From NCBI GenBank assembly GCA_020428535.1, contig JAGQMS010000004.1, positions 35,096-59,095 on the forward strand: a stretch of DNA of 24,000 nucleotides. The letters are read 5' to 3'. Shown in pieces: positions 6,826 through 22,512 of this stretch (positions are counted from its first letter, which is position 1; every line of letters starts with the position of its first letter). The notes beneath the pieces are model-generated. The model saw only the letters and a list, made by a program, of their open reading frames with translations, had not been told where the DNA came from and ran no database searches. A program made the position numbers and the translations under genes. Source of the DNA: Candidatus Saccharimonadota bacterium (GTDB taxonomy: Bacteria > Patescibacteriota > Saccharimonadia > Saccharimonadales > JAGQMS01).

Positions 6826-8455
6826 GCCCCTCATAGAGAGTGTTCGAATAAGATTCGACCAAGTATAGACGCTGGGCTTCTCTTTCGTCACCCACCACCC
6901 TACTAACTTCGTAAAATTTATTAAATATCCCTGCTAAATCATAAAGATAGGTGCACAAAACATGAGGCTGATAGTCTCTAGTTGCTTCTTGTATTTTCTC
7001 TTCAAATTGAACCAAAGCTCTTGCTAGACTTCTCTCTGATGAATCCAGCTTTGTAGGTTTCGCACGCATTTCGCTTTTTGAGAGGATGCTTCGAGCCCGT
7101 ACAAGTGCATATTGTAGATAGGGCCCGCTATTGCCTTGTAGGCTGACAGATTCTTGTGGGTCGAAAGCGATGTCACCACCAAGCCGATATTTCATGAACT
7201 CGTATTTCAAGGCACCGAGCGCAATCTTTTCATCTCGGTCTTTATCTCCACTGTCACCAACTAGCTCTCTAACAGTGTTAACAACATCAACTGCCGAAGT
7301 CACATTGCCCAGGCGAGATGACATTTTTTTACCGTCCCCAAACCTAATTATTCCATTAGTCAGATGTGTCATCTGCGCTTCAACTCCTGGTTCAATCTGA
7401 TCAATTGCCCTCCAGACCACCTTCATATATTCAGCTTGTTCGTTGCCAGTAACCAATACTCGTCTGTCAAAAGCAAAGTCATCTTTTTCAATCAGGATTA
7501 GCCCGATGTCTTTGGCTTCGTAAGTTGGCAGCCCAGCCGAATTAATGAACACTCTGGTGTGAAGGCCAAATTGTTCGCCTTCAAAGACTATTGCCCCATC
7601 TGATTCTTTGAAAACATTCGGTAAGTTAGCACGAACTGTTTCTTTACCACGCCGTTCGGTTGAGCTCTCGGGGTAATATTTTTCAAACTCATCGACCTTA
7701 AGCATTTCATAAAGCCTCAAGAAATAATCCTTGCACCAACCACGACACTCAAAATATACTCTCGCAAAAGCCGACTCCGTATCACCGCTAGCGTGCATCT
7801 CATAGATTCTTTTATTGATTTCAGCGATTTCTTTTTGGGCTTTTTCGTCATTATCAACCGAGTCAGCCTTAGCACCATCGACATATCTTGAAGCTATAAA
7901 TTTTGTTCGCTCCTCAACTGGTATCTCGGCAAGTTTTTCAGGGTATTCACCGCCTAAAAACTGTAAAATCCCCCAAATAGCCCTAGCCGCGCTCAGACCT
8001 ACATCCGCCCCAAAAGTTACTCGGTGAACATCGGCCCCCGCTCTCTCAATCAGCCTAGCAATCACATCACCAAATAGGGTCTGATAAAGATGCCCGGCAT
8101 GGAGTTCTTTAAAATAATTTGGGCAAGAATACTCGACTACCCAAGACTGCCCTTCTAGTTGCCTATCTGGCTGATTAACTAGGCTATCAATAAGTTCCTC
8201 ATCTTGAACACGTATATTCACAAAACCTGGCCCCGCCACAGATGCTTCATAACCCAAGTTCTGCAACGAATTTGCTATCGACTCCGCTATTTCGTAAGGT
8301 TTTTTTTGCAGTTTTCCGGCTATCTGCATTGCTACGTTGGAGGTGAAATCCCCAAACTGTTCCTCTGGAATAGTAATTTGCGGAACAATCTTAACTTTAA
8401 AATTACTTGCGACAATCTCTTCTACTACCTTAGCTATTTTATCCGCCAATTTCAT
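6788..8455 (-). CDS. argS: Arginine--tRNA ligase.
   Basis: It has the class I HIGH motif (HAGHL), an N-terminal additional domain and a C-terminal DALR anticodon-binding-like region. At 555 aa the length is typical. Confidence 0.95.
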   Translation of the reverse strand: MKLADKIAKVVEEIVASNFKVKIVPQITIPEEQFGDFTSNVAMQIAGKLQKKPYEIAESIANSLQNLGYEASVAGPGFVNIRVQDEELIDSLVNQPDRQLEGQSWVVEYSCPNYFKELHAGHLYQTLFGDVIARLIERAGADVHRVTFGADVGLSAARAIWGILQFLGGEYPEKLAEIPVEERTKFIASRYVDGAKADSVDNDEKAQKEIAEINKRIYEMHASGDTESAFARVYFECRGWCKDYFLRLYEMLKVDEFEKYYPESSTERRGKETVRANLPNVFKESDGAIVFEGEQFGLHTRVFINSAGLPTYEAKDIGLILIEKDDFAFDRRVLVTGNEQAEYMKVVWRAIDQIEPGVEAQMTHLTNGIIRFGDGKKMSSRLGNVTSAVDVVNTVRELVGDSGDKDRDEKIALGALKYEFMKYRLGGDIAFDPQESVSLQGNSGPYLQYALVRARSILSKSEMRAKPTKLDSSERSLARALVQFEEKIQEATRDYQPHVLCTYLYDLAGIFNKFYEVSRVVGDEREAQRLYLVESYSNTLYEGLKLLGIEAPEKM

Positions 8456-8490
8456 AGCTCCAGTATAACAGAGGTCGAATAAGATACTTC

Positions 8491-9159
8491 TTAAAATTTA
8501 CTAAGATAGTGCGGATTGTTCACAGCTAATTCGATCGCTTGGGCATGACTATCTAAAATTGCGCTGTATTCTTCTGGTGTTTTATTCATACTACTAAAAA
8601 CAAAGAAAGGGTCTAAAATGTCCATCCCGCAAAAGGCAAGCGTTCCGTGCAGAATTGGATGCAAAACTTGCCTGAGTGTGGCTCGATATTTCCCAAGCGG
8701 TTGATAAAACTCTTCTGGGCTGGCAGCTGTACCCACAAAAAGAACTTTTTTACCACGCAACAATCCGTCTTCGTAGATCTTCCCACTATCCCACGCAAAA
8801 CCCATCGTCAAGACACGGTCAAACCAGCCTTTCAATATCGCGGGAACCGACGACCACCAAATGGGGGTATAAAAGATAACTAAATCAGCCGCTTGAAGCC
8901 TCTGCATCTGTTCCAGCACATCTGGCGAATAAGACCACGAGTTTTCAGTCGCATATTTTTGCTCAAGCATGTAGTTAAAATGTCCGCCACTCAAAGTTTG
9001 AAAGTCATAAACGTTGGCTACCGGGTGGAACCCAATTCCGTACAGATCACTTTCCACAACTTGGTGGCCCATTTCTTGCAACTTGCTGATACCGAGATTT
9101 TTCAAAGAACCAACCAGAGATTTAGGCTCATGATGTGCATATACCACCAAAATATTCAT
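8491..9159 (-). CDS. NAD(P)H dehydrogenase (quinone), NQO1-like flavodoxin-fold protein.
   Basis: [27 protein letters not shown] closely parallels human NQO1 ([27 protein letters not shown]). The N-terminal ILVVYAH...VVESDLY also matches. Confidence 0.9.
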   Translation of the reverse strand: [222 protein letters not shown]

Positions 9160-9227
9160 GCTTATTAGTATATAGACGCTAGGCCCAAGGCGCCAGAGTC
9201 TATGTCTTTATGTGGTAAGGTAAATTT

Positions 9228-9452
9228 ATGATCAGAATAGTAGTTGTAGGTAAAAAGCACGAGACAATGTACCTAGATGCTATCAACCACTTCGAAAAAC
9301 GCCTAAAACCGTGGCAAAAAATTGAATGGTTGATTATCCCACCATCTGGGAAAAACCACGAACTTGCAAGAACCGAGGAAAGCACTATGATAACTGCAAA
9401 ACTTGGAAGTGATGATTTTGTGGTACTGCTTGATGAAGAGGGAGAGCTCTAA
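9228..9452 (+). pseudogene. rlmH: rlmH (23S rRNA m3-pseudouridine1915 methyltransferase), truncated. Only the N-terminal 74 of about 155 codons are intact.
   Basis: MIRIVVVGKK..AINHFEKRL....VVLLDEEGEL* matches the RlmH N-terminus up to the LDxxG motif. A shifted frame (9451-9546) reads KGVTWNSFIDSLVELDKKLAELG, which resembles E. coli [20 protein letters not shown]. No IGG..G or YH knot motifs follow. Confidence 0.7.
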
Positions 9453-9529
9453 GGGGGTTACATGGAACTCTTTTATAGATAGCTTGGTTGAACTAGATAA
9501 GAAATTAGCAGAACTAGGTGTGGTGGTTG

Positions 9530-10015
9530 ATGATGTTCAAAACTAAGACTCAACTACCATCAGAAACTTCACTATTTGATGAGCGTTCATTCTTTGCTGC
9601 GTTCAGTAAAGACTTCAAAAACGCTCAACACGAAGTAATTATCGAAAGTCCGTATATAACTATACGACGTGCTGAGGAAATTGCCCCACTGCTCACTAAA
9701 CTCTCAAAGAAACATGTAAAAGTATTTATACTGACTCGCAACCCAAGTCATCACGATGGAGATTTATACCGTCAAGCAATGGCTGGTATAGACATTTTAA
9801 AAAATTCAGGAGCAAAAGTTGTTGTCTGTAATGATATGCGACATCGTAAGCTGGCGATTATAGATAGCAGTATTTTGTGGGAAGGTTCTCTAAACCTACT
9901 TTCACAAAATGGTAGTAGAGAGTTAATGAGACGCACATACTCAAAAGAACTATGCGCTCAACTTCTTAGATTCACATCCATTAGAAAAGACATCAGATGG
10001 TACAATTGGAGGTAA
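9530..10015 (+). CDS. Phospholipase D-family (single HKD) nuclease, Nuc-like.
   Basis: The HKD motif is HRKLAIIDSSILWEGSLNL, i.e. HxK(x)4D(x)6GSxN. The size, about 160 aa, fits the homodimeric Nuc-type enzymes. The track start 9518 is GTG. ATG 9530 follows a GGTGG SD-like sequence. Confidence 0.75.
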   Translation: MMFKTKTQLPSETSLFDERSFFAAFSKDFKNAQHEVIIESPYITIRRAEEIAPLLTKLSKKHVKVFILTRNPSHHDGDLYRQAMAGIDILKNSGAKVVVCNDMRHRKLAIIDSSILWEGSLNLLSQNGSRELMRRTYSKELCAQLLRFTSIRKDIRWYNWR

Positions 10016-10017
10016 TT

Positions 10018-10209
10018 ATGAGTGGTTTTGAAATTACCGATAAAGATGTACAAGCTATAGTTAATTGGCTTAAACAAGCAGATCCAAAAAACGCCGATGA
10101 AGAACATGCGCGTGATTTTCTACTTTTCTTAAAGTTGAGTTACAGAGATGTGGGTTTTGACGACCCTGATAAGATAGAAGATTTATATGACAAGTTTATA
10201 AAGAGTTAA
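10018..10209 (+). CDS. Small acidic hypothetical protein, 63 aa.
   Basis: The ATG lies 7 nt after GGAGG and 2 nt after the nuclease stop codon. The protein has a net negative charge (many D/E). No family recognised. Confidence 0.5.
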   Translation: MSGFEITDKDVQAIVNWLKQADPKNADEEHARDFLLFLKLSYRDVGFDDPDKIEDLYDKFIKS

Positions 10210-10412
10210 AACGGTAAAATTTCTGAGGATTTTACACCGAGAGCTTTCACAATTTGCTCAAGCGTAGTAATTGTCGGTACTGCATCGCAGCGCTCAATTC
10301 TTGAGTAGTAGTTCGTGCTAATTTTAGCTTTTTTAGCGACATCTTCCTGCGTCATTCGTTTTTGGTCACGAACATACTTTAGGTTTTTAGCAATTTTTTC
10401 TTGAGTTGTCAT
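10206..10412 (-). CDS. XRE-family helix-turn-helix transcriptional regulator.
   Basis: LKYVRDQKRMTQEDVAKKAKISTNYYSRIERCDAVPTITTLEQIVKALGV is a canonical HTH_XRE (HTH_3) domain. Confidence 0.88.
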   Translation of the reverse strand: MTTQEKIAKNLKYVRDQKRMTQEDVAKKAKISTNYYSRIERCDAVPTITTLEQIVKALGVKSSEILPF

Positions 10413-10465
10413 AACTTTATTATAGCTCTTATTAATCAGTAAATGTAACCTCTGTAAGCATAAGT

Positions 10466-10493
10466 ATTATACAATCTATTTGCATTATTGCAA
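10466..10493 (-). promoter_or_regulatory. Candidate distal promoter for the XRE gene: TTGCAA-16 nt-TATAAT.
   Basis: The -35 is at 10488-10493 and the -10 at 10466-10471, read on the minus strand. A second TATAAT at 10419-10424 lies 6 nt before the ATG, a leaderless option. Confidence 0.35.
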
Positions 10494-10527
10494 GTTTCTT
10501 TGATATATTCAAGTTACCATAAGGAGG
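10480..10527 (+). promoter_or_regulatory. Candidate T4SS operon promoter TTGCAT-17 nt-ATATAT(T), plus SD AGGAGG.
   Basis: The -35 is at 10480-10485 and the -10 at 10503-10509. AGGAGG at 10522-10527 lies 9 nt before ATG 10537. Confidence 0.4.
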
Positions 10528-10536
10528 TAAAGGTAT

Positions 10537-10878
10537 ATGAGTAAAAAACAGCTCATCTTCCTCAGCTTATATATAGCTGTAGGGGTACCCTTTGTCCTCA
10601 CCAGCACAGCCTTGGCGCAAAGTGCGGGAGAAGTAGGTCAAGTAGAAAACTTCATCCGCAGCGTCATCCAGGTAATAGCAGGATTAGCCGGTCTCGTAGC
10701 GACCGGCTTTTTTGTTGTTGGTGGGTTCGGGTATATAACAAGTTCTGGAAATCCAGAAACATTAGAAAAATCTAAGCGGACGCTTATTTTTTCCGGTATG
10801 GGTCTTGCGATCACTATCGGTGCGTTTGTCTTAAGTAATATAGTCACGTCGTTGGCTTCGAACGCGTTCGGAGGATAA
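10537..10878 (+). CDS. VirB2/TrbC-like T4SS pilin-type protein.
   Basis: It has a signal peptide ending ALAQSA and two hydrophobic helices flanking the conserved loop GYITSSGNPETLEKSK. It sits first in the T4SS operon. Confidence 0.7.
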   Translation: MSKKQLIFLSLYIAVGVPFVLTSTALAQSAGEVGQVENFIRSVIQVIAGLAGLVATGFFVVGGFGYITSSGNPETLEKSKRTLIFSGMGLAITIGAFVLSNIVTSLASNAFGG

Positions 10879-10884
10879 AGCCTA

Positions 10885-12186
10885 GTGGATGCGTTCGTTG
10901 CCCTAATATCAAACGGGGTGGCGAACTTTGCGGTAGTTAATGCAGATGTGCAGAACTACCTCAGACCGATTATGTTTTCTCTTGTGGGCTTAGCCGGGGT
11001 TGTCTCGGCTTTTTTCATTGTTCAGGGTGGTATCGAATACATGACCAGCTCAGGAAAACCAGAGAAACTTGAGCATGCGAAGAAGATATTACGCAACGCA
11101 CTAATTGGTCTCGTCATGGTAATAGGTGCCGCTACGCTCACAGCAATATTAACGAGCGCCTATCAGGACAGCGGTGGTACAAGTATTGAGAATATTCCTA
11201 GCCTAACACCTGTTGAGACTGATACGGGTGGCGGTGGAATAACCGAAGTGCTCATAAATTCCATCATTGGTTTGTTTAAGCACATCATTACGACTGCCGC
11301 CAGTCCGTTCATTAGTGCACTCGATTACTTCACGCACAGCACGCCACTGATGGCGGATAATCCGTCAGTGTTCAAGCTATGGCTTACGATGCTTGGCATT
11401 GCTAATGCACTGTTTGTTGTTGGCGTGGCATTACTTGGGTTCCAAGTAATGAGCGCCTCTTCCCTGGGGCTAGAGGAAATGGAATTTAAACAGCTTCTAC
11501 CTAAACTTGTCTTTACGTTTCTGCTGATGAATATGTCGATATTCGCAATCGACGCCATTATTAGTCTGTCGAACGTCATGATAAGTGCAGTCGAGAGTGC
11601 TTATAGCTCACTATCGGTTTGGGATGCATTAACTGGAGTAGCGGACACCGCTGGTGGTCAAGGTTTTGTGGCCTTACTCATCATGGTCGTATTCCTCATA
11701 CTTGCAGCTATTCTGTTGGTCTATTACGTGATGCGTATCGTAACGCTTTATATCGGAGCCGTGCTATCGCCAATTGTTGCGCTTCTGCAAATCATCCCTG
11801 GCTTTAAGGATTTCACTACAACGGCAATAAAGGTCTATATATCCAATATTTTTGTTCTGTTTGTACATGTCGTGATTCTCACGCTTGCGGCCACCCTGTT
11901 CGATGGACTACGAACTGAAGGTGCTGACCCGCCGTACGATCCAGTCATGGCAATGATTGTCGGTGTCGCAACCTTAATTGCATTGCTTAAAACACAAGGC
12001 GTCATGATGCAGATTAGTTATGTCTCAGTTGGTCCGAGGGCATTGAGGCGACTTGGAAGTGAGTTTATGCACGGCGTTGGCTATCTAAGTAGTCGTAAAG
12101 GCTCATCAAGGCAATTGGCCGGTGAAGAAGCTACGACTACCAAGTCATCTAAACCTAAGAAAGTAACAAAGGAGGGATACAAGTAA
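10885..12186 (+). CDS. VirB6/TrbL-like polytopic membrane protein with an N-terminal VirB2-like pilin domain.
   Basis: GTG start. Residues about 20-100 align with the upstream pilin (GLAGVVSAFFIVQGGIEYMTSSGKPEKLEHAKK against GLAGLVATGFFVVGGFGYITSSGNPETLEKSKR). At least 5 further TM helices and a lysine-rich tail follow. Confidence 0.65.
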   Translation: MDAFVALISNGVANFAVVNADVQNYLRPIMFSLVGLAGVVSAFFIVQGGIEYMTSSGKPEKLEHAKKILRNALIGLVMVIGAATLTAILTSAYQDSGGTSIENIPSLTPVETDTGGGGITEVLINSIIGLFKHIITTAASPFISALDYFTHSTPLMADNPSVFKLWLTMLGIANALFVVGVALLGFQVMSASSLGLEEMEFKQLLPKLVFTFLLMNMSIFAIDAIISLSNVMISAVESAYSSLSVWDALTGVADTAGGQGFVALLIMVVFLILAAILLVYYVMRIVTLYIGAVLSPIVALLQIIPGFKDFTTTAIKVYISNIFVLFVHVVILTLAATLFDGLRTEGADPPYDPVMAMIVGVATLIALLKTQGVMMQISYVSVGPRALRRLGSEFMHGVGYLSSRKGSSRQLAGEEATTTKSSKPKKVTKEGYK

Positions 12187-12693
12187 ATGAAAACGACAAT
12201 TGTACCGGCACAAGTAACATCTGTCGAAGATAGAATCGCCGGAAACTTAAGTTTTAAACAATTGCTACTGATGATTGTTCCGGTGTTTTTGAGCGCTGCG
12301 CTCTTCGCTTTTCTACCTCCGTTTGCATCGTTTCAGATATATAAAGCCGTTATAAGTGTGGCCGTTTTAGTTATCTGTTTAGCGCTTGCCCTGAGAATAA
12401 AAAGTCGCCTAGTAGTCGACTGGGTCGTCATCTTATCACGCTATAATCTGCGACCTCGCTTCTATGTCTACAACAAGAATAATCAGACTGCTCGAATGGT
12501 TGTTGCAAAACAGCAAGCAGCAACGCTGCAAACCGAACAGAAAGTTACTCTGCCAAAACAATCGCCTCAGTTTGCTCATAACACGAATGATGAAATGACA
12601 TTCGAGGAAAGACTTGGCAATCCAGCCGCCAACTTACACTTCACATTCTCAAAGAAAGGAGGATTACGTGTCCATATTAAAGAAATCAGATAA
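12187..12693 (+). CDS. PrgI-family (VirB3-like) T4SS membrane protein.
   Basis: The N-terminus VPAQVTSVEDRIAGNLSFKQLLLMIVPVFLSAALFAFL matches my memory of the PrgI family, including its two TM helices. It lies directly before VirB4. Confidence 0.65.
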   Translation: MKTTIVPAQVTSVEDRIAGNLSFKQLLLMIVPVFLSAALFAFLPPFASFQIYKAVISVAVLVICLALALRIKSRLVVDWVVILSRYNLRPRFYVYNKNNQTARMVVAKQQAATLQTEQKVTLPKQSPQFAHNTNDEMTFEERLGNPAANLHFTFSKKGGLRVHIKEIR

Positions 12694-13279
12694 ACGCGCC
12701 AGCTCGCGTCAGCAGATACAAATTGATGGTGTTCGTGACGGCATACTACTGCTGCCAAAACGTGAATACCGACTAGTGCTAGAAAGCTCTAGTATCAACT
12801 TCGAGCTTATGAGTGAAGACGAGCAGGATGCTCTCATAGATACCTACCAGAATTTTCTCAATTCACTCAATACGAGCTTTCAGATATTGGTTCGAATACG
12901 TGAGCTTGATATGGATAAGTATCTCGAAAACTTCAAATCAAAAGTAAATGATAAAGACGACGAAGTGTACCGCAATCAAGCAAAGAACTATATGGATTTT
13001 GTAAGTGGCTTGGTAACAAATAACAAGATACTCACCAGAAAGTTTTATATTGTCCTGCCATTCAAAGCCGATGCGAATGATTTCAATGTTGCGGCTGAAC
13101 AACTAAAACTGCAAGCAGACATTGTCGCTAAAGGTCTCGGTCGCTTAGGTATGCAAGTAAGAAAACTAAACAGTATTGAAGTGCTTGATTTGTTCTATAG
13201 CTTTTACTCTCCAGGGCAAGCTAAGCGTGCACCACTGCGTGATCAAACAATCCAGCTTCTAAAGGAGGCCTACCTATGA
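12668..13279 (+). CDS. VirB4-family N-terminal domain encoded as a separate ORF.
   Basis: GTG 12668 lies 5 nt after AAAGGAGGA. QIQIDGVRDGILLLPKREYRLVLESSSINFELMSEDEQDALIDTYQNFLNSL is the typical N-terminal region of Gram-positive VirB4 (PrgJ/TraE-type). Its stop overlaps the next ATG (ATGA at 13276-13279). Confidence 0.65.
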   Translation: MSILKKSDKRASSRQQIQIDGVRDGILLLPKREYRLVLESSSINFELMSEDEQDALIDTYQNFLNSLNTSFQILVRIRELDMDKYLENFKSKVNDKDDEVYRNQAKNYMDFVSGLVTNNKILTRKFYIVLPFKADANDFNVAAEQLKLQADIVAKGLGRLGMQVRKLNSIEVLDLFYSFYSPGQAKRAPLRDQTIQLLKEAYL

Positions 13280-15027
13280 ACACCCCCACAAAGCTAAAAC
13301 CGCTACTGAAGAAATTGCCAAAGATTGGCAGTGATTCAAACGAGCCGAAAGACTTTACCTTTGCCTATGGCGAGCAAGACCCCATGGACTTAATTAGTTA
13401 CGCCGGTATGAAAGAGCAGCCAAGTTACTTGGTGATTGATGGGCGCTTTGTGCGAACGCTCTTCATCTCTGGGTATCCCTTTGTTGCAAATTCTGGCTGG
13501 CTTAACAGTCTCATTAACTTCAACAGCAACATAGACATTAGTTACCACATGGATCAAGTTGAAGCGACGCAAGCACTGCCTAAACTGAACAGAAAAATAA
13601 CTGAGCTTGAAAGTACAAAACGCTCAATGATTCGGGCGGGTAAAATTGTTGGTCCAGAGATTACTGATCCGCTCGAAAGTGCGATGGAATTGCGTGATAA
13701 GATTCAGCGCGGTCAAGAAATGCTCTTCCAAACGTCCATTTACGTTGCCTTATCTGCTGACTCATTGCCAGAACTTGAAAAACTTACAAAACTTCTTGAA
13801 ACGACACTTTCAGCAAGATTATTCTTCACCAAAGTTGCTCGCTACCAACAAGTTGAGGGACTTCAGTCTGTCCTTCCCCGAGCAGAGGATGTCTTAAGCC
13901 AAAAAAGAAATCTCGATAGTAGTTCCGCTAGCTTAACCTTTCCATTTATGAGTTCAGAACTTGTGCAGGAAAACGGTATTCTCTACGGCGTCAATAAGTC
14001 TAATAACTCACTGGTCATTCTTGATAGATTTAGCTTACATAATGCTAATTCGATAGTCTTTGCTCAGAGTGGTTCGGGTAAGAGCTATGCGACCAAGGTA
14101 GAAATTCTCCGTCAGCTTATGCAAGGTACGTCCGTCATCGTGATTGATCCGGAACGGGAGTACAAGCTACTCACAGATTCGGTAAACGGCACTTACGTAA
14201 AGCTATCTACCAACAGCAAACAAAAAATTAACCCATTCGATATCAGTACATCTTCAAAGAAGAAACGAGACCTATCGGAACATATCCAAGATGTAACAGA
14301 AATTGTTAGTTTGATGGTTGAGGGATTAAATCCAAAAGAAAAAGCAGCACTGGATAAAGCTTTGCTCAACATGTATAAACACGCCGCTAATAAACAACCA
14401 TTATTAAAAGATTTGTATCATGAGCTTAAGCTCCTTGAACAACTGAAACTATGCGAGCGTCTCGAAAGATACATTTCTGGTTCACTTGCTAATGTGTTCA
14501 ATAAGCGAAGCAATGTTAGCCTCGATAATCGTCTGGTTGTCTTTGATATTAAGGACATGCCTGAATCGCTTAGGCAGCTGATGATACTAATTGTCAGTAA
14601 CTATGTACAAAACGAAGTTAAGATTAATCCTAAAAAACGCTTACTCGTTATTGATGAGGGTTGGTTGCTTTTAGAGCACGAAGAGTCTGCTCGGTTCATC
14701 TCAGGCTTAGTGCGTCGAGCGCGTAAGTACTACTTGGGCGTATCAATCATCTCTCAACAAGCCAATGACTTTTTAAAGAATGATTACGGACGTGCCATAG
14801 CAAGCCAATCGGCGCTTCGCATACTCATGAGACAAGACACGACTACGATTAAGAACGTCGTCTCGCAGTTCAACCTTAGTGAGTATGAACACAACTTCCT
14901 ACTTACCTGCGAAAAAGGCGATGCGCTGATTATTGCCGATAAAAATCATGTAGCAGTGAAAGTTGTTGCCTCAGAAAAAGAACACCCGCTAATTACTACT
15001 AACCCTGCGGAGATATATAACCTGTGA
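13276..15027 (+). CDS. virB4: VirB4-family T4SS ATPase (ATPase domain).
   Basis: Walker A is in IVFAQSGSGKSY and Walker B in RLLVIDEGWLLL. ARKYYLGVSIISQQ is typical of VirB4/TraE. Confidence 0.88.
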   Translation: MNTPTKLKPLLKKLPKIGSDSNEPKDFTFAYGEQDPMDLISYAGMKEQPSYLVIDGRFVRTLFISGYPFVANSGWLNSLINFNSNIDISYHMDQVEATQALPKLNRKITELESTKRSMIRAGKIVGPEITDPLESAMELRDKIQRGQEMLFQTSIYVALSADSLPELEKLTKLLETTLSARLFFTKVARYQQVEGLQSVLPRAEDVLSQKRNLDSSSASLTFPFMSSELVQENGILYGVNKSNNSLVILDRFSLHNANSIVFAQSGSGKSYATKVEILRQLMQGTSVIVIDPEREYKLLTDSVNGTYVKLSTNSKQKINPFDISTSSKKKRDLSEHIQDVTEIVSLMVEGLNPKEKAALDKALLNMYKHAANKQPLLKDLYHELKLLEQLKLCERLERYISGSLANVFNKRSNVSLDNRLVVFDIKDMPESLRQLMILIVSNYVQNEVKINPKKRLLVIDEGWLLLEHEESARFISGLVRRARKYYLGVSIISQQANDFLKNDYGRAIASQSALRILMRQDTTTIKNVVSQFNLSEYEHNFLLTCEKGDALIIADKNHVAVKVVASEKEHPLITTNPAEIYNL

Positions 15028-15683
15028 CCATATTGCTCTGGTTGATAAAGAATACGAAGACAGAAATTAAGATTGTTCTAGCAACCTTAGCTGTGCTCAT
15101 ATTTTTACCGATTGTATCCGTTGTTGTTGTAGCATCTTCTGGTGTGCAGCTTGTCGGTGACGCATTAGCTGCCTTAAATCCAATAACGCACTTGGTCGAG
15201 ATTTTTGACACCGAAGGCAATGTCATTGGTGAGGTTGAGCTTACAACCAATTGGCCTACACGTGGATATATATCTGATGAATTTGGCTCAGAGCAACAGT
15301 TTAGACTCGACTGGGGATTAGGCGCTCATACGGGTATAGATATTGCGAATCAGAATGGACTTATTGGTGAGCCGGTTACACCGTTTATGACAGGTACGGT
15401 TCTGTTTGTTGATCAGGTTGATGACTCAGCTTGCGGCATCAATGTAAAGTTACAGCACGACTTTAATATAACTAGTACGTATTGCCACCTTAGTAGCGCG
15501 GTGAACATCGCACCGACAACCGAAGTGCATCCTGGCGACATCATTGGGTATATGGGTAGTACTGGTGCATCTACTGGTCCGCATCTACATCTCACGACTG
15601 CAGTGTATGGAATACCAATTAATCCTCGTACGTTTCTAGTTGGGGAACCGGAAGGATCAACCGTTGTCGTACCTACTTTTTAG
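15024..15683 (+). CDS. M23 (LytM-type) peptidoglycan hydrolase with an N-terminal membrane anchor. Probable VirB1-analogous wall hydrolase.
   Basis: HTGIDIA and GSTGASTGPHLHL are the M23 metal-binding motifs. A GTGA overlap couples it to the VirB4 stop. Confidence 0.88.
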   Translation: MTILLWLIKNTKTEIKIVLATLAVLIFLPIVSVVVVASSGVQLVGDALAALNPITHLVEIFDTEGNVIGEVELTTNWPTRGYISDEFGSEQQFRLDWGLGAHTGIDIANQNGLIGEPVTPFMTGTVLFVDQVDDSACGINVKLQHDFNITSTYCHLSSAVNIAPTTEVHPGDIIGYMGSTGASTGPHLHLTTAVYGIPINPRTFLVGEPEGSTVVVPTF

Positions 15684-18225
15684 CGTCGGTTTACTAGTTC
15701 TAGCAATTACCTTGCTCGTTGCTAGGTTTGTGTATGGTTTTATACACCTACTGACAAGAAAAATGGTCTACCTAGAAATAATTCCACCTGCTTTCCAAGA
15801 CAAATCACTTGAAGCCACTGATTCACTCTTTGGAGCTTTGCATAAACTTGGCTCACCAACAGCAGTTGAACGCTTGCTTGGCAAAAAGCATATATTCAGT
15901 GTCGAGATACACTCATCCAGTAAACAAGGTATACGATTCATCATAGCGGTTCCTGACGACAAGACTGACACCGTAGAGAAACTAATCCACTCTTTCGTAC
16001 CTGATTCAAAGACTAAGATTATTGATGTAGACACTATCTCTCCCCGAAGGATATTTGAATTTAGACAAAGCAAGCACTTTAGCTATCCTATTCAGTCCTT
16101 TGATATGCCCGAAAAAGACGATCCCTTGGGGTATATAACAGGGTCGATGACGAAACTAAAGGAGGATGAGCGAGCAATATACCAACTGACGTTTAAGCCC
16201 GTACAACTGCGTCAAGCAAAACAACTGCAACAAAAAATACTGAGAAACGATGCGTTCATGCCTGAAGCAAAAGTTAAGGCGGGTTTTTTAACTCCCGTGT
16301 TCTCGTTAACCAATAAACTTCTTTTTGCAGCAGCTGATGCATTTTCTGCCGGGGTTCATCACGATACAACACACTATGCAGTAGTAGGCGCACAACGGGA
16401 CCTGGAATACAAAAAGCAGCTAGCTCGTGGTGATAAGCCAGTTAGAACGCTAAGCTATTTTGAGCATGAAGTGATTGAATCAGTTAATCAAAAATTGAAG
16501 CGTCCTTTGTTTGATTGCCGTGTCCGATTTATTTTGCAGACTAATCAAAAAGAAACAGAGCGCACGGCGAAGCGCTCAATAGTAGCAGCAATCGGTATTT
16601 TTGACGTTTCTGGATATCAGAAACTTAGTCTGCGACGGCGGAAGTTTGGAGTTTCCAGAAAGTTGCAAGAATTAGCGGTTAGCAAGAGATTACTTGGAGT
16701 CAGCTCAGGCCAAAATTATTTCTCAGCCAATGAATTATCTCGGCTGTATCACGTACCGCATTCGCAAACTGTAAAAACAACAAATGTCATTAAGTCGTTA
16801 AGCAAGACTCTGCCTGCACCTGTGTCATTAAAGCAGAACGAAAATTTGGATGTGCTGTTTGGTGAAAATCTCCATCATGGTCAAACGACAGCAATTGGTC
16901 TAACAGCTGCAGAACGTGAACGACATATGTACATTATTGGGGGTACGGGAAATGGTAAGACTACCATGCTCAAATACATGATTTCTCAAGACATTAAGAA
17001 CAATAAAGGTGTTGCAGTAGTTGACCCGCACGGAGACTTAGCTGAGGAACTACTTGGATTAATACCCGAACATAGACTTCAAGATGTGGTGTATATAAGC
17101 CCTGATGACCTCGCTTACCCGATAGGGATTAATCTTCTTGAACTCACTGAAGGATTAACTGGTGATGAGCTACTGCGCGAAAAAGACCTTATAACTGAAT
17201 CAGCCATATCTGTACTCCGTAAACTATTCTCCGAAGACGATAGCGGCGGACACCGTATTGAGTATGTGTTGCGTAACACAATTCAGACAGCACTCACTGT
17301 GCCAGGAGCAAACCTGTTCACTATTTTCCGGCTTTTAAATGATAAGAAATATCGTAAAGATATCGTAAACAGGCTCGAAGACCAGGATTTAAAGATATTC
17401 TGGAAGAACGAACTTGGTAAAGCTGGAGAGATGCAGAAAGTAAAGATGGCAGCTGGTATTACTGCGAAGATCGGACGATTTCTTTTCTCGGCATCAGCTA
17501 AAAGAATCCTAGAGCAAGAAAAATCTACTATTAACTTTGATGCACTGATGGACGAAGGAAAAATCGTCATCTGTAATTTCTCCAAGGGTTTACTAGGAGA
17601 AGATACTTCTATGCTATTTGGTGTTACGGTACTTGCGAAACTCCAGCTTGCGTCTCTTCGGCGTGCTCGGTTAGCACAGGATAATCGTCGGCCGTTTTAT
17701 GTCTATGTTGATGAGTTTCAAAACTTTGCGACTATGAGCTTTGTACAGATGCTCAGTGAAGCGCGTAAGTATAAGTTGTATCTCACGATGGCTGAACAAT
17801 CAACGCAGCAACAGCAAGAACAGCGACTTGTCGATATTATTCTTGCTAATGTCGCTACTGTAGTTGCATTTCGTTCAGGTAGCCCTGCCGATGCTCGACT
17901 ACTCATACCACTATTCAGTCCATATATTGAAGAGCGCGAACTTGCTAACTTGCCGGCCTATAATTTCTACTGTCGAATATCTGCGATTCACGCACAAGAG
18001 CCTCTATCGGGTGTTACGGTATTGCTCGACTCAGAATCCGATGCTCAAGTCGCTGAAATTGTTAGAACGGCATCACGTACCAAGTATGCAAAACAGAAAA
18101 TTGAAGAAGTTATTGTGGATACACCAAGTGTAAATACTCCTGTTAGCAAACCTATAAAAACTCGTAAGAAATCCAAACAATCTACTAAACGCGGTGTACC
18201 GCAGGAGGAACTAATCCATGGCTAG
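15640..18225 (+). CDS. virD4: VirD4/TraG-family type IV coupling protein (T4CP) with a long N-terminal extension.
   Basis: Walker A is IIGGTGNGKTT, near residue 436. Walker B is FYVYVDEFQNF. An N-terminal TM helix is present. The start is uncertain. The track uses TTG 15640. TTG 15664 lies 7 nt after GGAAGGA and is at least as likely. Confidence 0.85.
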   Translation: MGNRKDQPLSYLLFSVGLLVLAITLLVARFVYGFIHLLTRKMVYLEIIPPAFQDKSLEATDSLFGALHKLGSPTAVERLLGKKHIFSVEIHSSSKQGIRFIIAVPDDKTDTVEKLIHSFVPDSKTKIIDVDTISPRRIFEFRQSKHFSYPIQSFDMPEKDDPLGYITGSMTKLKEDERAIYQLTFKPVQLRQAKQLQQKILRNDAFMPEAKVKAGFLTPVFSLTNKLLFAAADAFSAGVHHDTTHYAVVGAQRDLEYKKQLARGDKPVRTLSYFEHEVIESVNQKLKRPLFDCRVRFILQTNQKETERTAKRSIVAAIGIFDVSGYQKLSLRRRKFGVSRKLQELAVSKRLLGVSSGQNYFSANELSRLYHVPHSQTVKTTNVIKSLSKTLPAPVSLKQNENLDVLFGENLHHGQTTAIGLTAAERERHMYIIGGTGNGKTTMLKYMISQDIKNNKGVAVVDPHGDLAEELLGLIPEHRLQDVVYISPDDLAYPIGINLLELTEGLTGDELLREKDLITESAISVLRKLFSEDDSGGHRIEYVLRNTIQTALTVPGANLFTIFRLLNDKKYRKDIVNRLEDQDLKIFWKNELGKAGEMQKVKMAAGITAKIGRFLFSASAKRILEQEKSTINFDALMDEGKIVICNFSKGLLGEDTSMLFGVTVLAKLQLASLRRARLAQDNRRPFYVYVDEFQNFATMSFVQMLSEARKYKLYLTMAEQSTQQQQEQRLVDIILANVATVVAFRSGSPADARLLIPLFSPYIEERELANLPAYNFYCRISAIHAQEPLSGVTVLLDSESDAQVAEIVRTASRTKYAKQKIEEVIVDTPSVNTPVSKPIKTRKKSKQSTKRGVPQEELIHG

Positions 18226-18309: not shown

Positions 18310-18939
18310 TTATGCCGTCTGATCGATTAGATTGAATTCATATTCAGTTATGAGTCTCATATCTTTTTTGTCGAATCCAAGTAGCTCATAATTTTTATCG
18401 CTACCTTGCTTACCTAGCAAGACTAAGTCAAAACTATCAAGTAAGCGTTTAGGAATTACATCCTCCGGGCTTGGCCTTGACGTATCATATAGCAGCTTCA
18501 TATTTGCGTTTTTTGCATTCTGATTAATAGTGATGAGCGCATTAGAAAACCGTTCCGTATCAACACAAGCTGCGTCACACTCATCAATTGCAATAAAGAT
18601 TTGTGGTTTAGAAACGTTGTTCTTGGCTCTATCTTTAGAAAGCTCTGCAAGTTTCTCTAATTTATCTAGAGCCTCCTCCGGATCTGTAATTACAGGACAA
18701 TATAGCTTCTCGGCAATTTTAAACTCATCTTCTTCAGGGTGGTTTACCCAGTGCCCAAATTCAACTTGCTTGAAATCAAATAAAGCAAACTGAATGTCTT
18801 CCGATTTTTTGTTACTTGCATAGCGCTTTATTAATTGTTCAACTAGGTATGATTTACCACTACCTGTTTGCCCAGTAATGAAAGCACTGTTATGAACATT
18901 AAAGGTAAAGTAGTCAGCATCTGTTTTTGCATAGTTCAT
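18310..18939 (-). CDS. Small stand-alone P-loop NTPase, FtsK/HerA/VirB4-clade-like. Last gene of the extended BREX operon.
   Basis: Walker A is GQTGSGKS (residues 23-30) and Walker B is IFIAIDE (D119, E120). An ATGA overlap (18936-18939) joins it to the upstream gene. Confidence 0.7.
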   Translation of the reverse strand: MNYAKTDADYFTFNVHNSAFITGQTGSGKSYLVEQLIKRYASNKKSEDIQFALFDFKQVEFGHWVNHPEEDEFKIAEKLYCPVITDPEEALDKLEKLAELSKDRAKNNVSKPQIFIAIDECDAACVDTERFSNALITINQNAKNANMKLLYDTSRPSPEDVIPKRLLDSFDLVLLGKQGSDKNYELLGFDKKDMRLITEYEFNLIDQTA

Positions 18940-20318
18940 AGTTTCAATAATACCTTATAGATTTCTACCATGGCGAGAGTGTCTAGTTTGCAATACTCTA
19001 CTAGGTCATTAAATATGGTCTCTTTTTGGTCGGCACGTTTATCATCTAACACCGCCTCCATCCATAGTCTTTGAGCGGAACCACCTTCTTGGATGCCGAG
19101 CTCTTTATAAGATAGCTCTGGCACTAAAACGGGGAGCACTTGCTTGATACTTGCGCTACCGTTAAAACGAGGGTCGTCATACCATTTTTTCTTGAAGGGA
19201 ATCATTAAATCTACAACTCTGTCGTTTATAGCTTCCATTTGGTCTTTTAGGTCTGGGTACATATCACCAAGCTCAGAGTTCCGAGCTTTTTCGAATCCTT
19301 CATACCAGACTAGTACAGTTCCTTCAGTTCCAATGTCCTTAAGTAGTTGCTCTGCTAGTGGTCTAGATGGATCAGAGTTTTCTCGGTGTAAATACTCACG
19401 TTGCTCCAACTCTGAATCAGCAGTCTGTAATACATGTAGTGAATACTGGAATGGTATTTGTTGGTAGGGTCTATGTCCGTCGAAGTATGGTACAAGACTC
19501 ATCATTGTTTCATAGTCCAAGAAGTACAATGGGAATTTAAGTTCGTCTAAGAATTGTTTAATCTCGTCATGTTGAATAGTAGGTTGTAGGTCATCTGGGT
19601 ATTGATCTGGTTCTTGCGGAACAATGTTTTCATAAATCTTTAGCCAATCGCTTTTAGAACCTAGCTTCGCGAGTGTAGGGTCGGGGTCTGGCATTTGTTG
19701 TCTCTGGGCAGTTTCTAGAGCCATAGGCATATATTTTGCCGTTAGTTCACCCTTTGAGCGTACATCTTCCGTTATGTCTGTGATCTTAGTTATTTCATCT
19801 GCTTTTATCTCACCGTTACGAATGTATTCTTTGTTTACATGAATGACGTAGATGTTTTTAACCGAATATCCAGCGCCCTCCAAAACCGCAGTCTGGTAGG
19901 CGAGGTCAAATGCATGCTCAGGTTTTGCACTGGTGCTTGCCTTGATTTCATATAAATCAACTTCCTTATCACCAACAAAGCTGACAATATCAGATATGCA
20001 GGTGAAGTCTTGCCACACAAAACGTGGCTGGAATAGGACTTGATCCCCGCGCTCGATTGCTGCGTTGGTACGCTCTGGCATTGACCAATAGCTTTGCTCT
20101 GAATCATCAAAGGAGAATCCAATACTCACGCCTTCTGGGAACAACGCCTCCGCGTATTGCTCAAATTGGTGACCAGCATCAAAGATTACCTGTTGATTCT
20201 CGTCAACGGGTGGTATCAATTCTGGTTTATTTTTCTTTACCCATATCCAAGCGGGGTGTTTGAGAAATAGCATGTAGTCAGATTTTGATATGGTGATCGG
20301 CATATTGCTACTTGTCAT
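18936..20318 (-). CDS. DUF2779-like protein with two nuclease-like halves: N-terminal PD-(D/E)xK (RecB/Cas4-like) and C-terminal RNase-H/DnaQ-like.
   Basis: The N-terminal half reads GHQFEQYAE...CISD(110)IV...DLYE(124)IK(126)AST...DLAYQ, in PD-(D/E)xK order. The C-terminal half has PLYFLD(268)YE(270)T, VWYEGFE and CKLDTLAM. The family call is from memory, not a search. Confidence 0.7.
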   Translation of the reverse strand: MTSSNMPITISKSDYMLFLKHPAWIWVKKNKPELIPPVDENQQVIFDAGHQFEQYAEALFPEGVSIGFSFDDSEQSYWSMPERTNAAIERGDQVLFQPRFVWQDFTCISDIVSFVGDKEVDLYEIKASTSAKPEHAFDLAYQTAVLEGAGYSVKNIYVIHVNKEYIRNGEIKADEITKITDITEDVRSKGELTAKYMPMALETAQRQQMPDPDPTLAKLGSKSDWLKIYENIVPQEPDQYPDDLQPTIQHDEIKQFLDELKFPLYFLDYETMMSLVPYFDGHRPYQQIPFQYSLHVLQTADSELEQREYLHRENSDPSRPLAEQLLKDIGTEGTVLVWYEGFEKARNSELGDMYPDLKDQMEAINDRVVDLMIPFKKKWYDDPRFNGSASIKQVLPVLVPELSYKELGIQEGGSAQRLWMEAVLDDKRADQKETIFNDLVEYCKLDTLAMVEIYKVLLKL

Positions 20319-20475
20319 TCCTTATGATTGGCAATATCACAGCGACATGTTCGTCGGTCTCTTGCAGTTTCTTTAGATCTTCATCACTCATGGTTTGTTT
20401 CTTGGTAGAGTTCTTGCTTTTACCAATCATTAAGAGCGTAATGAGGGTTATAGAAAATGCTGCAACAAAAATCAT
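20308..20475 (-). CDS. 55-aa single-pass membrane micro-protein, not in the supplied ORF track.
   Basis: I translated it by hand as MIFVAAFSITLITLLMIGKSKNSTKKQTMSDEDLKKLQETDEHVAVILPIIRNDK*. Its ATG shares one base with the brxL TAA (TAATG). Its last 11 nt overlap the next ATG. A hydrophobic helix is followed by a KSK...KK positive patch. Confidence 0.5.
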   Translation of the reverse strand: MIFVAAFSITLITLLMIGKSKNSTKKQTMSDEDLKKLQETDEHVAVILPIIRNDK

Positions 20476-22502: not shown

Positions 22503-22512
22503 TTCTTCCTCC

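Follow-up and report, generated by a model that had tools for sequence, protein, structure and literature searches.

Type IV secretion systems (T4SS) have been noted across Saccharibacteria (PMC7427843), and in the Patescibacteria (candidate phyla radiation, CPR) they are among the few machines shown to be essential for epibiotic life. Transposon sequencing (Tn-seq) found a T4SS cluster to be essential for the epibiotic growth of Southlakia epibionticum ML1; the cluster carries an unusual pilin array and holds no recognisable coupling protein or relaxase (PMC10633639). Here we describe a 24,000-nt stretch of DNA (the window; contig JAGQMS010000004.1 of assembly GCA_020428535.1, positions 35,096-59,095 of the forward strand) from an uncultured Saccharimonadales bacterium (Patescibacteria/CPR). 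Seven tightly packed genes at 10537-18225 of the window very probably encode the resident T4SS of this bacterium, a monoderm machine related to the mating-pair formation class MPF_FATA and of a kind already described for the phylum. All coordinates below are window positions.

The closest described systems come from a survey of 3,035 Patescibacteria genomes, which placed their VirB4 proteins in a monophyletic clade nested in MPF_FATA and found separate TrsD genes to be widespread (PMC12102498). The same survey reported PrgI, VirB6 and VirB2-like pilins, almost no VirB8, no VirB9 or VirB10, and other peptidases in place of VirB1. Relaxases numbered only 109, 58 of them of the MOBC class (PMC12102498). 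Published work argues that the T4SS of Patescibacteria has been turned to functions other than conjugation, and that its essentiality does not hinge on DNA uptake through ComEC (PMC12102498, PMC10633639, PMC12857230). Saccharibacteria rely on type IV pili and ComEC for competence, and their T4SS was shown to be essential irrespective of ComEC (PMC12857230). The locus described here is no new kind of system; it shows that in one lineage the T4SS operon itself takes in a coupling ATPase of the conjugation type.

A seven-gene type IV secretion operon

The seven open reading frames (ORFs) follow one another on the plus strand in the order VirB2-like pilin, pilin-VirB6 fusion, PrgI/VirB3, TrsD-like N-terminal part of VirB4, VirB4 ATPase, M23 peptidase and an ATPase resembling type IV coupling proteins (T4CPs). 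From ORF1 to ORF7 the junctions measure +6, 0, -26, -4 (ATGA), -4 (GTGA) and -20 nt, if GTG 12668 is taken as the start of ORF4 and TTG 15664 as that of ORF7. The mechanically called longest ORFs begin at 12614 and 15640 instead and give overlaps of -80 and -44 nt at these two junctions; the GTG and TTG codons are most likely the true starts. Shine-Dalgarno sequences of the GGAGG/GAAGGA type lie 6-10 nt 5' of all seven starts, that of ORF4 being AAAGGAGGA.

ORF1 (10537..10878, plus strand, 113 aa) is a VirB2-like pre-pilin. It matches the Pfam family T4SS_pilin (PF18895) at 37.2 bits (cut-off 26.6) and falls just under the cut-off of 40 for the NCBIfam Mbov_0395 pilin-like family (39.5 bits). 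Its two hydrophobic helices come after a Sec signal peptide that ends in ALA-QS, the hydrophobic segments spanning residues 4-27, ~39-68 and ~81-108. ORF2 (10885..12186, plus strand, 433 aa) joins a second pilin domain at its N-terminus (residues ~16-92; T4SS_pilin 35.2 bits; 42% identity with ORF1 across 85 aa) to a polytopic channel protein of the VirB6/TrbL type, and ORF2 as a whole has at least six hydrophobic segments. Its TrbL score of 20.7 bits is below the cut-off of 25.9, and the precomputed TrbL_3 (PF19590) match is unmarked. The same pilin-VirB6 fusion is present in related loci of other CPR genomes (L008-L013, L020, L021, L027 and L093). ORF3 (12187..12693, plus strand, 168 aa) is a PrgI/VirB3-like membrane protein, with a Pfam PrgI match over residues 6-95 (29.6 bits; cut-off 27) and two hydrophobic helices within residues 17-78. 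Two similar GC-rich hairpins followed by a T-run lie within the pilin-domain coding regions at 10686-10708 and 10992-11010 (the ...AGLAGLVATGFF... segment). We rejected the terminator-like hairpins as terminators because they fall within coding sequence, both pilin domains included; these two probably reflect paralogous coding sequence.

VirB4 is encoded in two pieces. ORF4 (12668..13279, plus strand, 203 aa) is the TrsD-like N-terminal part: it covers positions 11-174 of the NCBIfam CD1110 VirB4 model at 52.9 bits, scores 36.7 bits against the staphylococcal family TrsD, and has a precomputed match to the TraC-like family PF26593. It overlaps virB4 by the 4 nt of the ATGA junction, and the TrsD/VirB4 split is kept in relatives. 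ORF5 (13276..15027, plus strand, 583 aa) is the VirB4 ATPase, with Walker A AQSGSGKS and Walker B LLVIDE. It matches positions 190-733 of the NCBIfam conju_CD1110 model at 352.5 bits, above the equivalog cut-off of 325, and the solved C-terminal domain of a Gram-positive VirB4 (PDB 4AG5) at E 1.5e-36. Its best plasmid matches are CD1110-family VirB4 proteins of Bacillota, led by that of Pontibacillus (36.7% identity, E 2e-103). Identity reaches 63-73% with VirB4 of Saccharimonadales and Daviesbacteria metagenome-assembled genomes (MAGs), and is at most 37% with any plasmid VirB4. For both VirB4 (68-73% identity) and the T4CP (44-72%) the nearest relatives are encoded, in an unchanged gene order, by MAGs of Candidatus Saccharimonadales/Saccharibacteria.

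ORF6 (15024..15683, plus strand, 219 aa) is a membrane-anchored M23 metallo-endopeptidase (Peptidase_M23, 74.2 bits) with an N-terminal hydrophobic anchor at residues 12-51 and intact HxxxD (HTGID) and HxH (HLH) motifs. It is the predicted cell-wall hydrolase of the machine and takes the place of VirB1. The slot between virB4 and the T4CP gene holds a CHAP enzyme in seven related loci (L008-L010, L012, L013, L018 and L027); M23 occupies it in the window and in L093, and lies 3' of virB4 in L021. The alternation of CHAP and M23 is a non-orthologous replacement of a VirB1-like function.

Fourteen metagenome contigs, each assembled independently, carry the same operon with an identical VirB4 protein and gene order, which rules out a sequencing or assembly error as the cause of the TrsD/VirB4 split. 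Profile searches of every called gene in the window found no member of the relaxase families, and no window gene has a Pfam or NCBIfam match to VirB7, VirB8, VirB9, VirB10 or VirB11. Searching the window by tblastn for the Replic_Relax (MOBC), serine recombinase and DUF2958 families of related loci gave no match. An Rfam scan of the window was empty as well. These results agree with an earlier note on this DNA, which had described a Gram-positive/CPR-style T4SS without relaxase, VirB8/9/10 or VirB11 in the window. Its seven tightly succeeding ORFs, with GTGA, ATGA, 26-nt and 20-44-nt overlaps, are confirmed by the ORF coordinates and starts, and its seven gene assignments are borne out by profile, structure and synteny evidence. 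It had also seen no oriT-like repeat, and a search of the two flanking intergenic regions for oriT- and att-like repeats returned merely short palindromes of 10-11 nt.

The long coupling ATPase and its relatives

The last gene of the operon, ORF7 (15664..18225, plus strand, TTG start), encodes a long-form T4CP-like ATPase of 853 aa. It is genetically linked to the T4SS by the shared operon, and since it overlaps the hydrolase gene (by 20 nt) it is probably co-expressed with the machine. The protein is laid out as a transmembrane (TM) helix at residues 1-31, an N-domain at ~32-368 (DNA 15757-16767), Walker A GGTGNGKT at 426-433 and Walker B YVYVDE at 679. Four Pfam families match above their cut-offs, namely TrwB_AAD_bind (29.4 bits, cut-off 20.5), T4SS-DNA_transf (23.7, cut-off 20.1), TraG-D_C (25.4, cut-off 22) and DUF87 (45.9 bits); no NCBIfam T4CP model reaches its cut-off on ORF7. 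By tblastn the C-terminal half matches annotated plasmid T4CPs at up to E 3e-45. Against the VirB4/TraC/CagE profiles, ORF7 scores 23 bits to TIGR00929 (cut-off 643) and 14 bits to AAA_10, short of a family match. The identifier PF26449 is among those listed for ORF7 homologues.

ORF7 lacks the canonical T4CP layout, in which the transmembrane domain (TMD) is followed directly by the nucleotide-binding domain (NBD) and all-alpha domain (AAD) (PMC7434980); a folded domain of ~340 aa intervenes. The earlier note had counted about 430 residues ahead of the Walker A, as the position of that motif bears out, and had described a large N-terminal region of unknown function. The size stands, and in place of the unknown function there is a conserved domain with a VirB4-like fold, as far as the models go. 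In more than 1,000 database proteins the region is conserved both in length and in sequence. Among species-representative genomes, ORF7 homologues occur in at least 599 stretches, drawn from many CPR classes, in near full-length alignments that include the N-terminal extension. Structure prediction of the N-terminal region returned one TM helix and a folded domain whose significant matches in the PDB are to TrwK/VirB4 only.

The whole-protein AlphaFold2 model is of mediocre quality (pLDDT 67). It places the TM helix at residues 2-31, gives the N-domain a pLDDT of ~85, and shows seven helices at ~501-616 between the Walker motifs, a helical insert. Residues 1-31 form one hydrophobic helix, modelled as a helix at pLDDT 87-91, and residues 32-368 modelled alone reach pLDDT 82.9 and a pTM of 0.77. 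A Foldseek search of the PDB with the whole model ranked full-length VirB4 first (R388 TrwK), in a colinear alignment of ~810 columns (E 3.5e-8); the coupling proteins DotL and Cag-beta aligned over only ~360 columns (E ~5e-4). With the N-domain alone, all 14 of the 14 significant matches were TrwK/VirB4 chains (E 3e-6 to 5e-4), the next being generic ferredoxin-like folds at E >= 9e-3, and no RecA-type ATPase other than VirB4 appeared in the list. Since no other RecA-type ATPase was listed and the whole-protein alignment with TrwK is colinear, we infer that the match is to the N-terminal domain of VirB4 and not to its ATPase domain. On these models, residues ~32-368 would form a conserved, well-modelled domain with a VirB4-like fold.

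Relatives of ORF7 and of the rest of the operon are carried on Gram-positive plasmids. A 27.5-kb plasmid of B. subtilis (NZ_CP154917, L102) encodes an 885-aa 'DUF87 domain-containing protein', then a 'replication-relaxation family protein', along with a full Gram-positive transfer operon. The CPR T4CP family profile aligns with the 885-aa protein at a probability of 99.8% (hhalign, E 1.4e-28) over 642 columns that begin at ORF7 residue 44 and thus include the N-domain. An Embleya plasmid (NZ_CP108778, L103) has PrgI, VirB4, an 812-aa T4CP with P-loop matches from about residue 415, Replic_Relax and NlpC/P60, and a Pontibacillus megaplasmid (NZ_CP062975, L104) has a pilin, VirB6, a TraL/VirB3-like protein, a 274-aa gene, VirB4 and M23. 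For each part of the window operon there is thus an equivalent in the conjugation modules of monoderm bacteria. The PF13814 family, Replic_Relax, is equivalent to the MOBC class of relaxases (PMC5357655), and the long N-terminal region is a trait of the T4CP family that accompanies these relaxases.

All three plasmids, with their VirB4-type transfer clusters, are listed as 'non-mobilizable' by MOB-suite in PLSDB; the B. subtilis and Embleya plasmids also carry the long T4CP and a Replic_Relax relaxase. Such plasmid transfer modules seem to be under-recognised. The Priestia megaterium megaplasmid pFDU301A (L100) has an unannotated region at 685-694 kb in which homologues of VirB4 (34% identity) and of the T4CP lie within ~5 kb of each other; the T4CP match begins at ORF7 residue 69 and so covers the N-domain.

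Among CPR genomes we called and clustered the ORFs of 80 related loci and searched them with family hidden Markov models (HMMs). The operon order is common to nine of them (L008-L013, L018, L027 and L093). By T4CP the loci form two groups. Group A comprises 23 loci, the window included, at 40-72% identity; within 10 kb of the T4CP gene there is VirB4 in 11 of the 23, Replic_Relax/MOBC in 11 (usually directly 3' of the T4CP) and a large serine recombinase in 10, with DUF2958 in six loci and a PLD nuclease in seven. About half of the closer CPR relatives of ORF7 have at least one of two neighbours, a MOBC relaxase and a large serine recombinase. Group B comprises 57 loci (L031-L086) at ~30% identity, with VirB4 nearby in a single locus. 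This paralogue group is widespread in CPR, and in many of its loci the T4CP comes last in a kept context of dprA, topA and a sigma70_r4/HARE-HTH protein.

Individual loci of the closer relatives differ in what surrounds the T4CP. In L018, the closest genome in the collection (STL-PAT16; 70% T4CP identity), the T4SS genes and T4CP are followed by six cargo genes, a MOBC relaxase and a large serine recombinase, the last two ~6 kb downstream of the T4CP, in a layout resembling an integrative and conjugative element (ICE). TrsD, VirB4 and the T4CP are each split into two or three ORFs in this locus (7018-12515), probably through indel errors of a long-read assembly and not through decay. In L020 and L021 the T4CP and MOBC genes (plus a serine recombinase in L020) lie 3-6 kb upstream of the T4SS genes. 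L092 (62% T4CP identity) has the T4CP between a serine recombinase and DUF2779 with restriction and abortive-infection genes, and no T4SS genes nearby. L093 (72% T4CP identity) repeats the layout of the window, from PLD, small ORF and helix-turn-helix (HTH) genes through T4SS and T4CP to DUF2779, then continues with PIF1 and a type ISP restriction enzyme, not BREX; it has no relaxase or recombinase within 10 kb.

A bolder proposal, which we put forward tentatively and would sooner doubt than assert, is that ORF7 represents an undescribed class of coupling ATPase spread across CPR and MOBC-type Gram-positive plasmids, in which a VirB4-like N-domain precedes a VirD4-like motor, as a living VirB4-VirD4 intermediate. 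Such a protein might dock on VirB3/VirB6 as VirB4 does and, with MOBC relaxases, might let an 'essential' T4SS conjugate defence-island DNA between ultra-small bacteria. The VirB4-like fold, if confirmed, bears on the evolution of VirD4 from VirB4.

Function of the machine and its genomic setting

We have high confidence that the locus is a resident MPF_FATA-related T4SS and much lower confidence in its substrate. By analogy with the essential homologue in S. epibionticum, the core machine would most likely serve epibiotic interaction with a host. Because its family adjoins MOBC relaxases on Bacillus and Actinomycete plasmids and in about half of the closer CPR relatives, the window copy of the T4CP probably keeps a conjugation-type arm for substrate recruitment; most likely this arm is usable by MOBC elements, and it could move DNA with a MOBC relaxase supplied elsewhere. 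The steps of such a mechanism draw on established knowledge of VirB/PrgI-type systems, the parts being those found in the operon. The Xre regulator encoded upstream would control the divergent promoter, and the M23 enzyme would open the peptidoglycan locally. TrsD and VirB4, docked on PrgI and VirB6, would extract pilin and build from it a pilus or conduit directed at the host cell. An ORF7 hexamer, anchored by one TM helix per protein, would recruit substrate and pump it into the channel.

The regulator gene (10206..10412, minus strand; Pfam HTH_3, 53.8 bits) is divergent from the operon, and homologues with 50-55% identity adjoin orthologous T4CP genes in four related loci (L011, L022, L023 and L030). 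Its product is likely a repressor or activator of the T4SS promoter region. The 124-bp intergenic region between the two (10413..10536) is the presumed promoter/operator and contains short palindromes (TTGCAttatTGCAA near 10480, and 10498-10513), with an inverted repeat. A scan for consensus promoters found 13 sites versus 18.2 expected in shuffled sequence, fewer than by chance.

Several points weigh against this reading or parts of it. The position of ORF5 in the published Patescibacteria VirB4 clade is a provisional one, given by similarity and synteny only. The structural matches of the ORF7 N-domain to TrwK/VirB4 chains have a TMq of just 0.36-0.42 and a root-mean-square deviation (rmsd) of 9-12 A. 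A profile of 72 N-domain sequences, compared by hhalign with the TrsD and VirB4 families of the related loci, reached a probability of at most 2.6%, and the T4CP family profile found no PDB sequence at E <= 0.01, the only match being TrwB at E 0.079. With TM-scores below 0.5, no profile signal and a marginal TrwB match, we therefore speak of a VirB4-like fold and regard homology as unproven. Only 148 of 5,713 CPR T4CP homologues in the survey lie near virB4, and the T4CP homologue of S. epibionticum is non-essential (PMC12102498). The T4CP inside the operon is therefore no part of what is conserved and essential, and it may play another role. The window offers no pointer to a substrate.

The earlier note had left two options, a conjugation module with its DNA processing elsewhere or an effector translocator, and both are discussed in the literature. 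The alternative that holds up best, a possibility we nevertheless judge doubtful, is that the machine is purely a protein or effector translocator, or host-exploitation device, which transfers no DNA and has exapted the T4CP-like ATPase for protein substrates. The missing relaxase fits it, as do the published arguments for co-option and for ComEC-independent essentiality (PMC12102498, PMC10633639, PMC12857230). For the core machine it overlaps with our reading, and the two part only over what ORF7 does; there the ties of this T4CP family to recombinases and to relaxases of the MOBC class, both in CPR and on plasmids of Gram-positive bacteria, speak against it; nor does the operon encode a candidate effector.

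It is unlikely, though less far-fetched than the explanations that follow, that the locus belongs to an ICE inserted into rlmH, of which it would be the half for mating pore and coupling, with BREX as cargo and a MOBC relaxase and large serine recombinase beyond BREX. Large-serine-recombinase elements such as SCCmec target rlmH, and in the window an rlmH (SPOUT methyltransferase) remnant at 9228-9546, cut to 74 codons with a frameshifted continuation of 37 codons, lies immediately left of the PLD and HTH genes; the truncation could be the scar of an insertion. The ICE-like order of L018, the T4CP-MOBC pairs of L020 and L021, the frequency of MOBC and serine recombinase genes in Group A and the pairing of this T4CP type with a relaxase on homologous plasmids point the same way. 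So does the differing defence cargo behind T4CP and DUF2779 in L092 and L093. To the right of the window operon, on the minus strand and convergent with it, a BREX system with BrxL and PglZ is joined by a 55-aa ORF, DUF2779 and an FtsK/HerA-like gene (18310-24000 together). The FtsK/HerA-like P-loop protein (18310-18939, 209 aa; Pfam FtsK_SpoIIIE, 38 bits) converges on the T4CP, and the DUF2779 protein (18936-20318; Pfam DUF2779, 147 bits), co-oriented with BREX, has Cas4-like and RNase-H-like signals and no PADLOC match. As far as the evidence goes, we regard both as neighbours and not as parts of the T4SS. DUF2779 is also found 3' of the T4CP in L015, L092 and L093, and the defence system that comes after it is another one in each case.

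Against an ICE, the 24 kb contain no relaxase, integrase, recombinase, tRNA gene or att-like repeat, and the truncated rlmH is the sole hint of a boundary. L093 likewise has no such gene within 10 kb. In GC and GC3 the seven T4SS genes do not differ from the housekeeping flank, argS and the genes around it; only the PLD, HTH and FtsK-like genes are lower, so that recent acquisition of the core operon is unsupported. Patescibacteria typically have one vertically inherited VirB4 per genome (2,474 in 2,417 assemblies; PMC12102498), and the window operon is therefore probably the resident one. The right end lies beyond view, since all 23 of 23 metagenome contigs with the window BrxL (L088-L099 included) stop inside pglZ or the gene upstream of it, a pattern that hints at variation among strains or at a repeat within this stretch of BREX. 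The contig to the left is housekeeping DNA. Placed between a truncated rlmH and BREX, the locus has flanks that look island-like. We read the T4SS core as native, lodged in a variable region with many defence and mobile genes.

Far less probable still is a ComB-like apparatus for DNA uptake or release that works with the adjacent PLD-family (Nuc/NucT-like) nuclease. This protein of 165 aa (PLDc_2, 45 bits), encoded with a 70-aa ORF (9997-10209) at 9518..10209 on the plus strand, has weak similarity to NucT and lies ~0.5 kb upstream of the operon. PLD and the small ORF recur near the T4CP in L008-L010, L013, L017, L028, L030 and L093, and a T4CP paralogue group has the dprA-topA context in many CPR genomes. 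The NucT matches are, however, far under the cut-off (20.8 versus 211 bits), the PLD protein has no signal peptide, and Saccharibacteria take up DNA by the pilus- and ComEC-dependent route named above. In L092, moreover, an Mrr nuclease with a 64-aa ORF and an HTH gene occupies the PLD-ORF-HTH arrangement, a swap that better fits a defence or addiction module. This triad of a small nuclease (PLD, or Mrr in L092), an ORF of 64-75 aa and an Xre HTH gene recurs beside orthologous T4CPs in several CPR genomes (9518-10412 in the window). It may be an addiction, defence or regulatory module, and that the PLD protein and the 70-aa ORF are part of the T4SS is uncertain.

That the locus is no T4SS at all, its two ATPases being FtsK/HerA/DUF87-type defence or DNA-translocase proteins that lie by chance beside membrane proteins, would account for DUF87/HerA as the best Pfam match of ORF7, for weak PADLOC matches to mad8, DndH and HerA and for the adjacent BREX, but we reject it as exceedingly improbable given the CD1110 equivalog and 4AG5 matches of ORF5, the presence of pilin, VirB6, PrgI and TrsD in canonical order, and an ORF7 that passes three T4CP Pfam cut-offs and aligns with a relaxase-linked plasmid T4CP, so that neither ATPase falls in a non-T4SS clade.

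Elsewhere in the CPR, members of the ORF7 family are accompanied by MOBC relaxases, serine recombinases and cargo genes for defence. If the machine in this lineage still conjugates, it bears on horizontal gene flow in a very large and poorly understood part of the bacterial tree, and it would offer a route to genetic tools for Patescibacteria.

Comparison with known systems

The system, its composition, the missing relaxase and the links between T4CPs and MOBC are already in print. Like the Patescibacteria T4SS of S. epibionticum (SEML1_0006-0019) and Nanosynbacter lyticus TM7x, the window cluster has a monoderm MPF_FATA-related VirB4 with a TrsD-like gene upstream, PrgI/VirB3 and VirB6, VirB2-like pilins in the cluster, a peptidase other than VirB1 directly 3' of virB4, and a host in the Saccharimonadia; it shares with them the lack of VirB8/9/10/11 and of a relaxase nearby. 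It differs in its pilins, with one free pilin and one fused to VirB6 where S. epibionticum has an array of six, and in its location, beside argS and BREX and not at the site of SEML1_0006-0019 (dnaA/dnaN lie near virB4 in many classes). The coupling protein differs as well: the homologue of S. epibionticum is distant from the cluster and non-essential, whereas the T4CP-like gene of the window is in the operon and overlaps the hydrolase gene.

The plasmid modules of the MPF_FATA class resemble the window in other respects. The Pontibacillus order runs from pilin, VirB6 and a VirB3-like gene through a gene in the TrsD slot and a CD1110-type VirB4 to M23, and the B. subtilis and Embleya plasmids have a long T4CP (812-885 aa) after VirB4. 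Unlike those two plasmids, in which a relaxase comes right after the T4CP, the window has none. Plasmid VirB4 proteins (B. subtilis, Embleya and Pontibacillus) are 29-37% identical to ORF5, and VirB4 is a single 847-aa gene on the Bacillus plasmid and split in the window. These modules are extrachromosomal, whereas the window locus is chromosomal and belongs to a reduced CPR genome.

ORF7 itself stands between two families. With VirD4/TrwB-type T4CPs (R388 TrwB, DotL, Cag-beta) it shares an N-terminal anchor, a domain with Walker A and B motifs, a modelled helical insert and the TraG-D_C signature. Unlike TrwB, which is soluble after removal of ~70 N-terminal residues (PMC7434980), it has ~425 residues before its Walker A; the published T4CP domain classes (TMD, NBD, AAD and C-terminal domain, CTD; PMC7434980) include none like its ~340-aa N-domain, and its sequence similarity to TrwB is marginal (E 0.079). 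With VirB4 (R388 TrwK, PDB 7O43/8RTD) its model aligns colinearly over the full length, and the N-domain has significant matches to TrwK only. Unlike VirB4, it passes no VirB4 profile cut-off, its TM-scores are only 0.34-0.42 and the sequence of its ATPase domain is nearer to T4CPs; besides, the operon already holds a bona fide split VirB4. Neither the VirB4-like fold of the T4CP N-domain nor the sharing of this domain with Gram-positive MOBC plasmids appears in the literature cited here, and the same is true of the recurrent frame in which a nuclease, a small ORF and an HTH gene stand at one end and T4CP, DUF2779 and defence cargo at the opposite end. Set beside the described T4SS of its phylum, the window cluster is unusual in one feature, the long coupling ATPase inside the operon.

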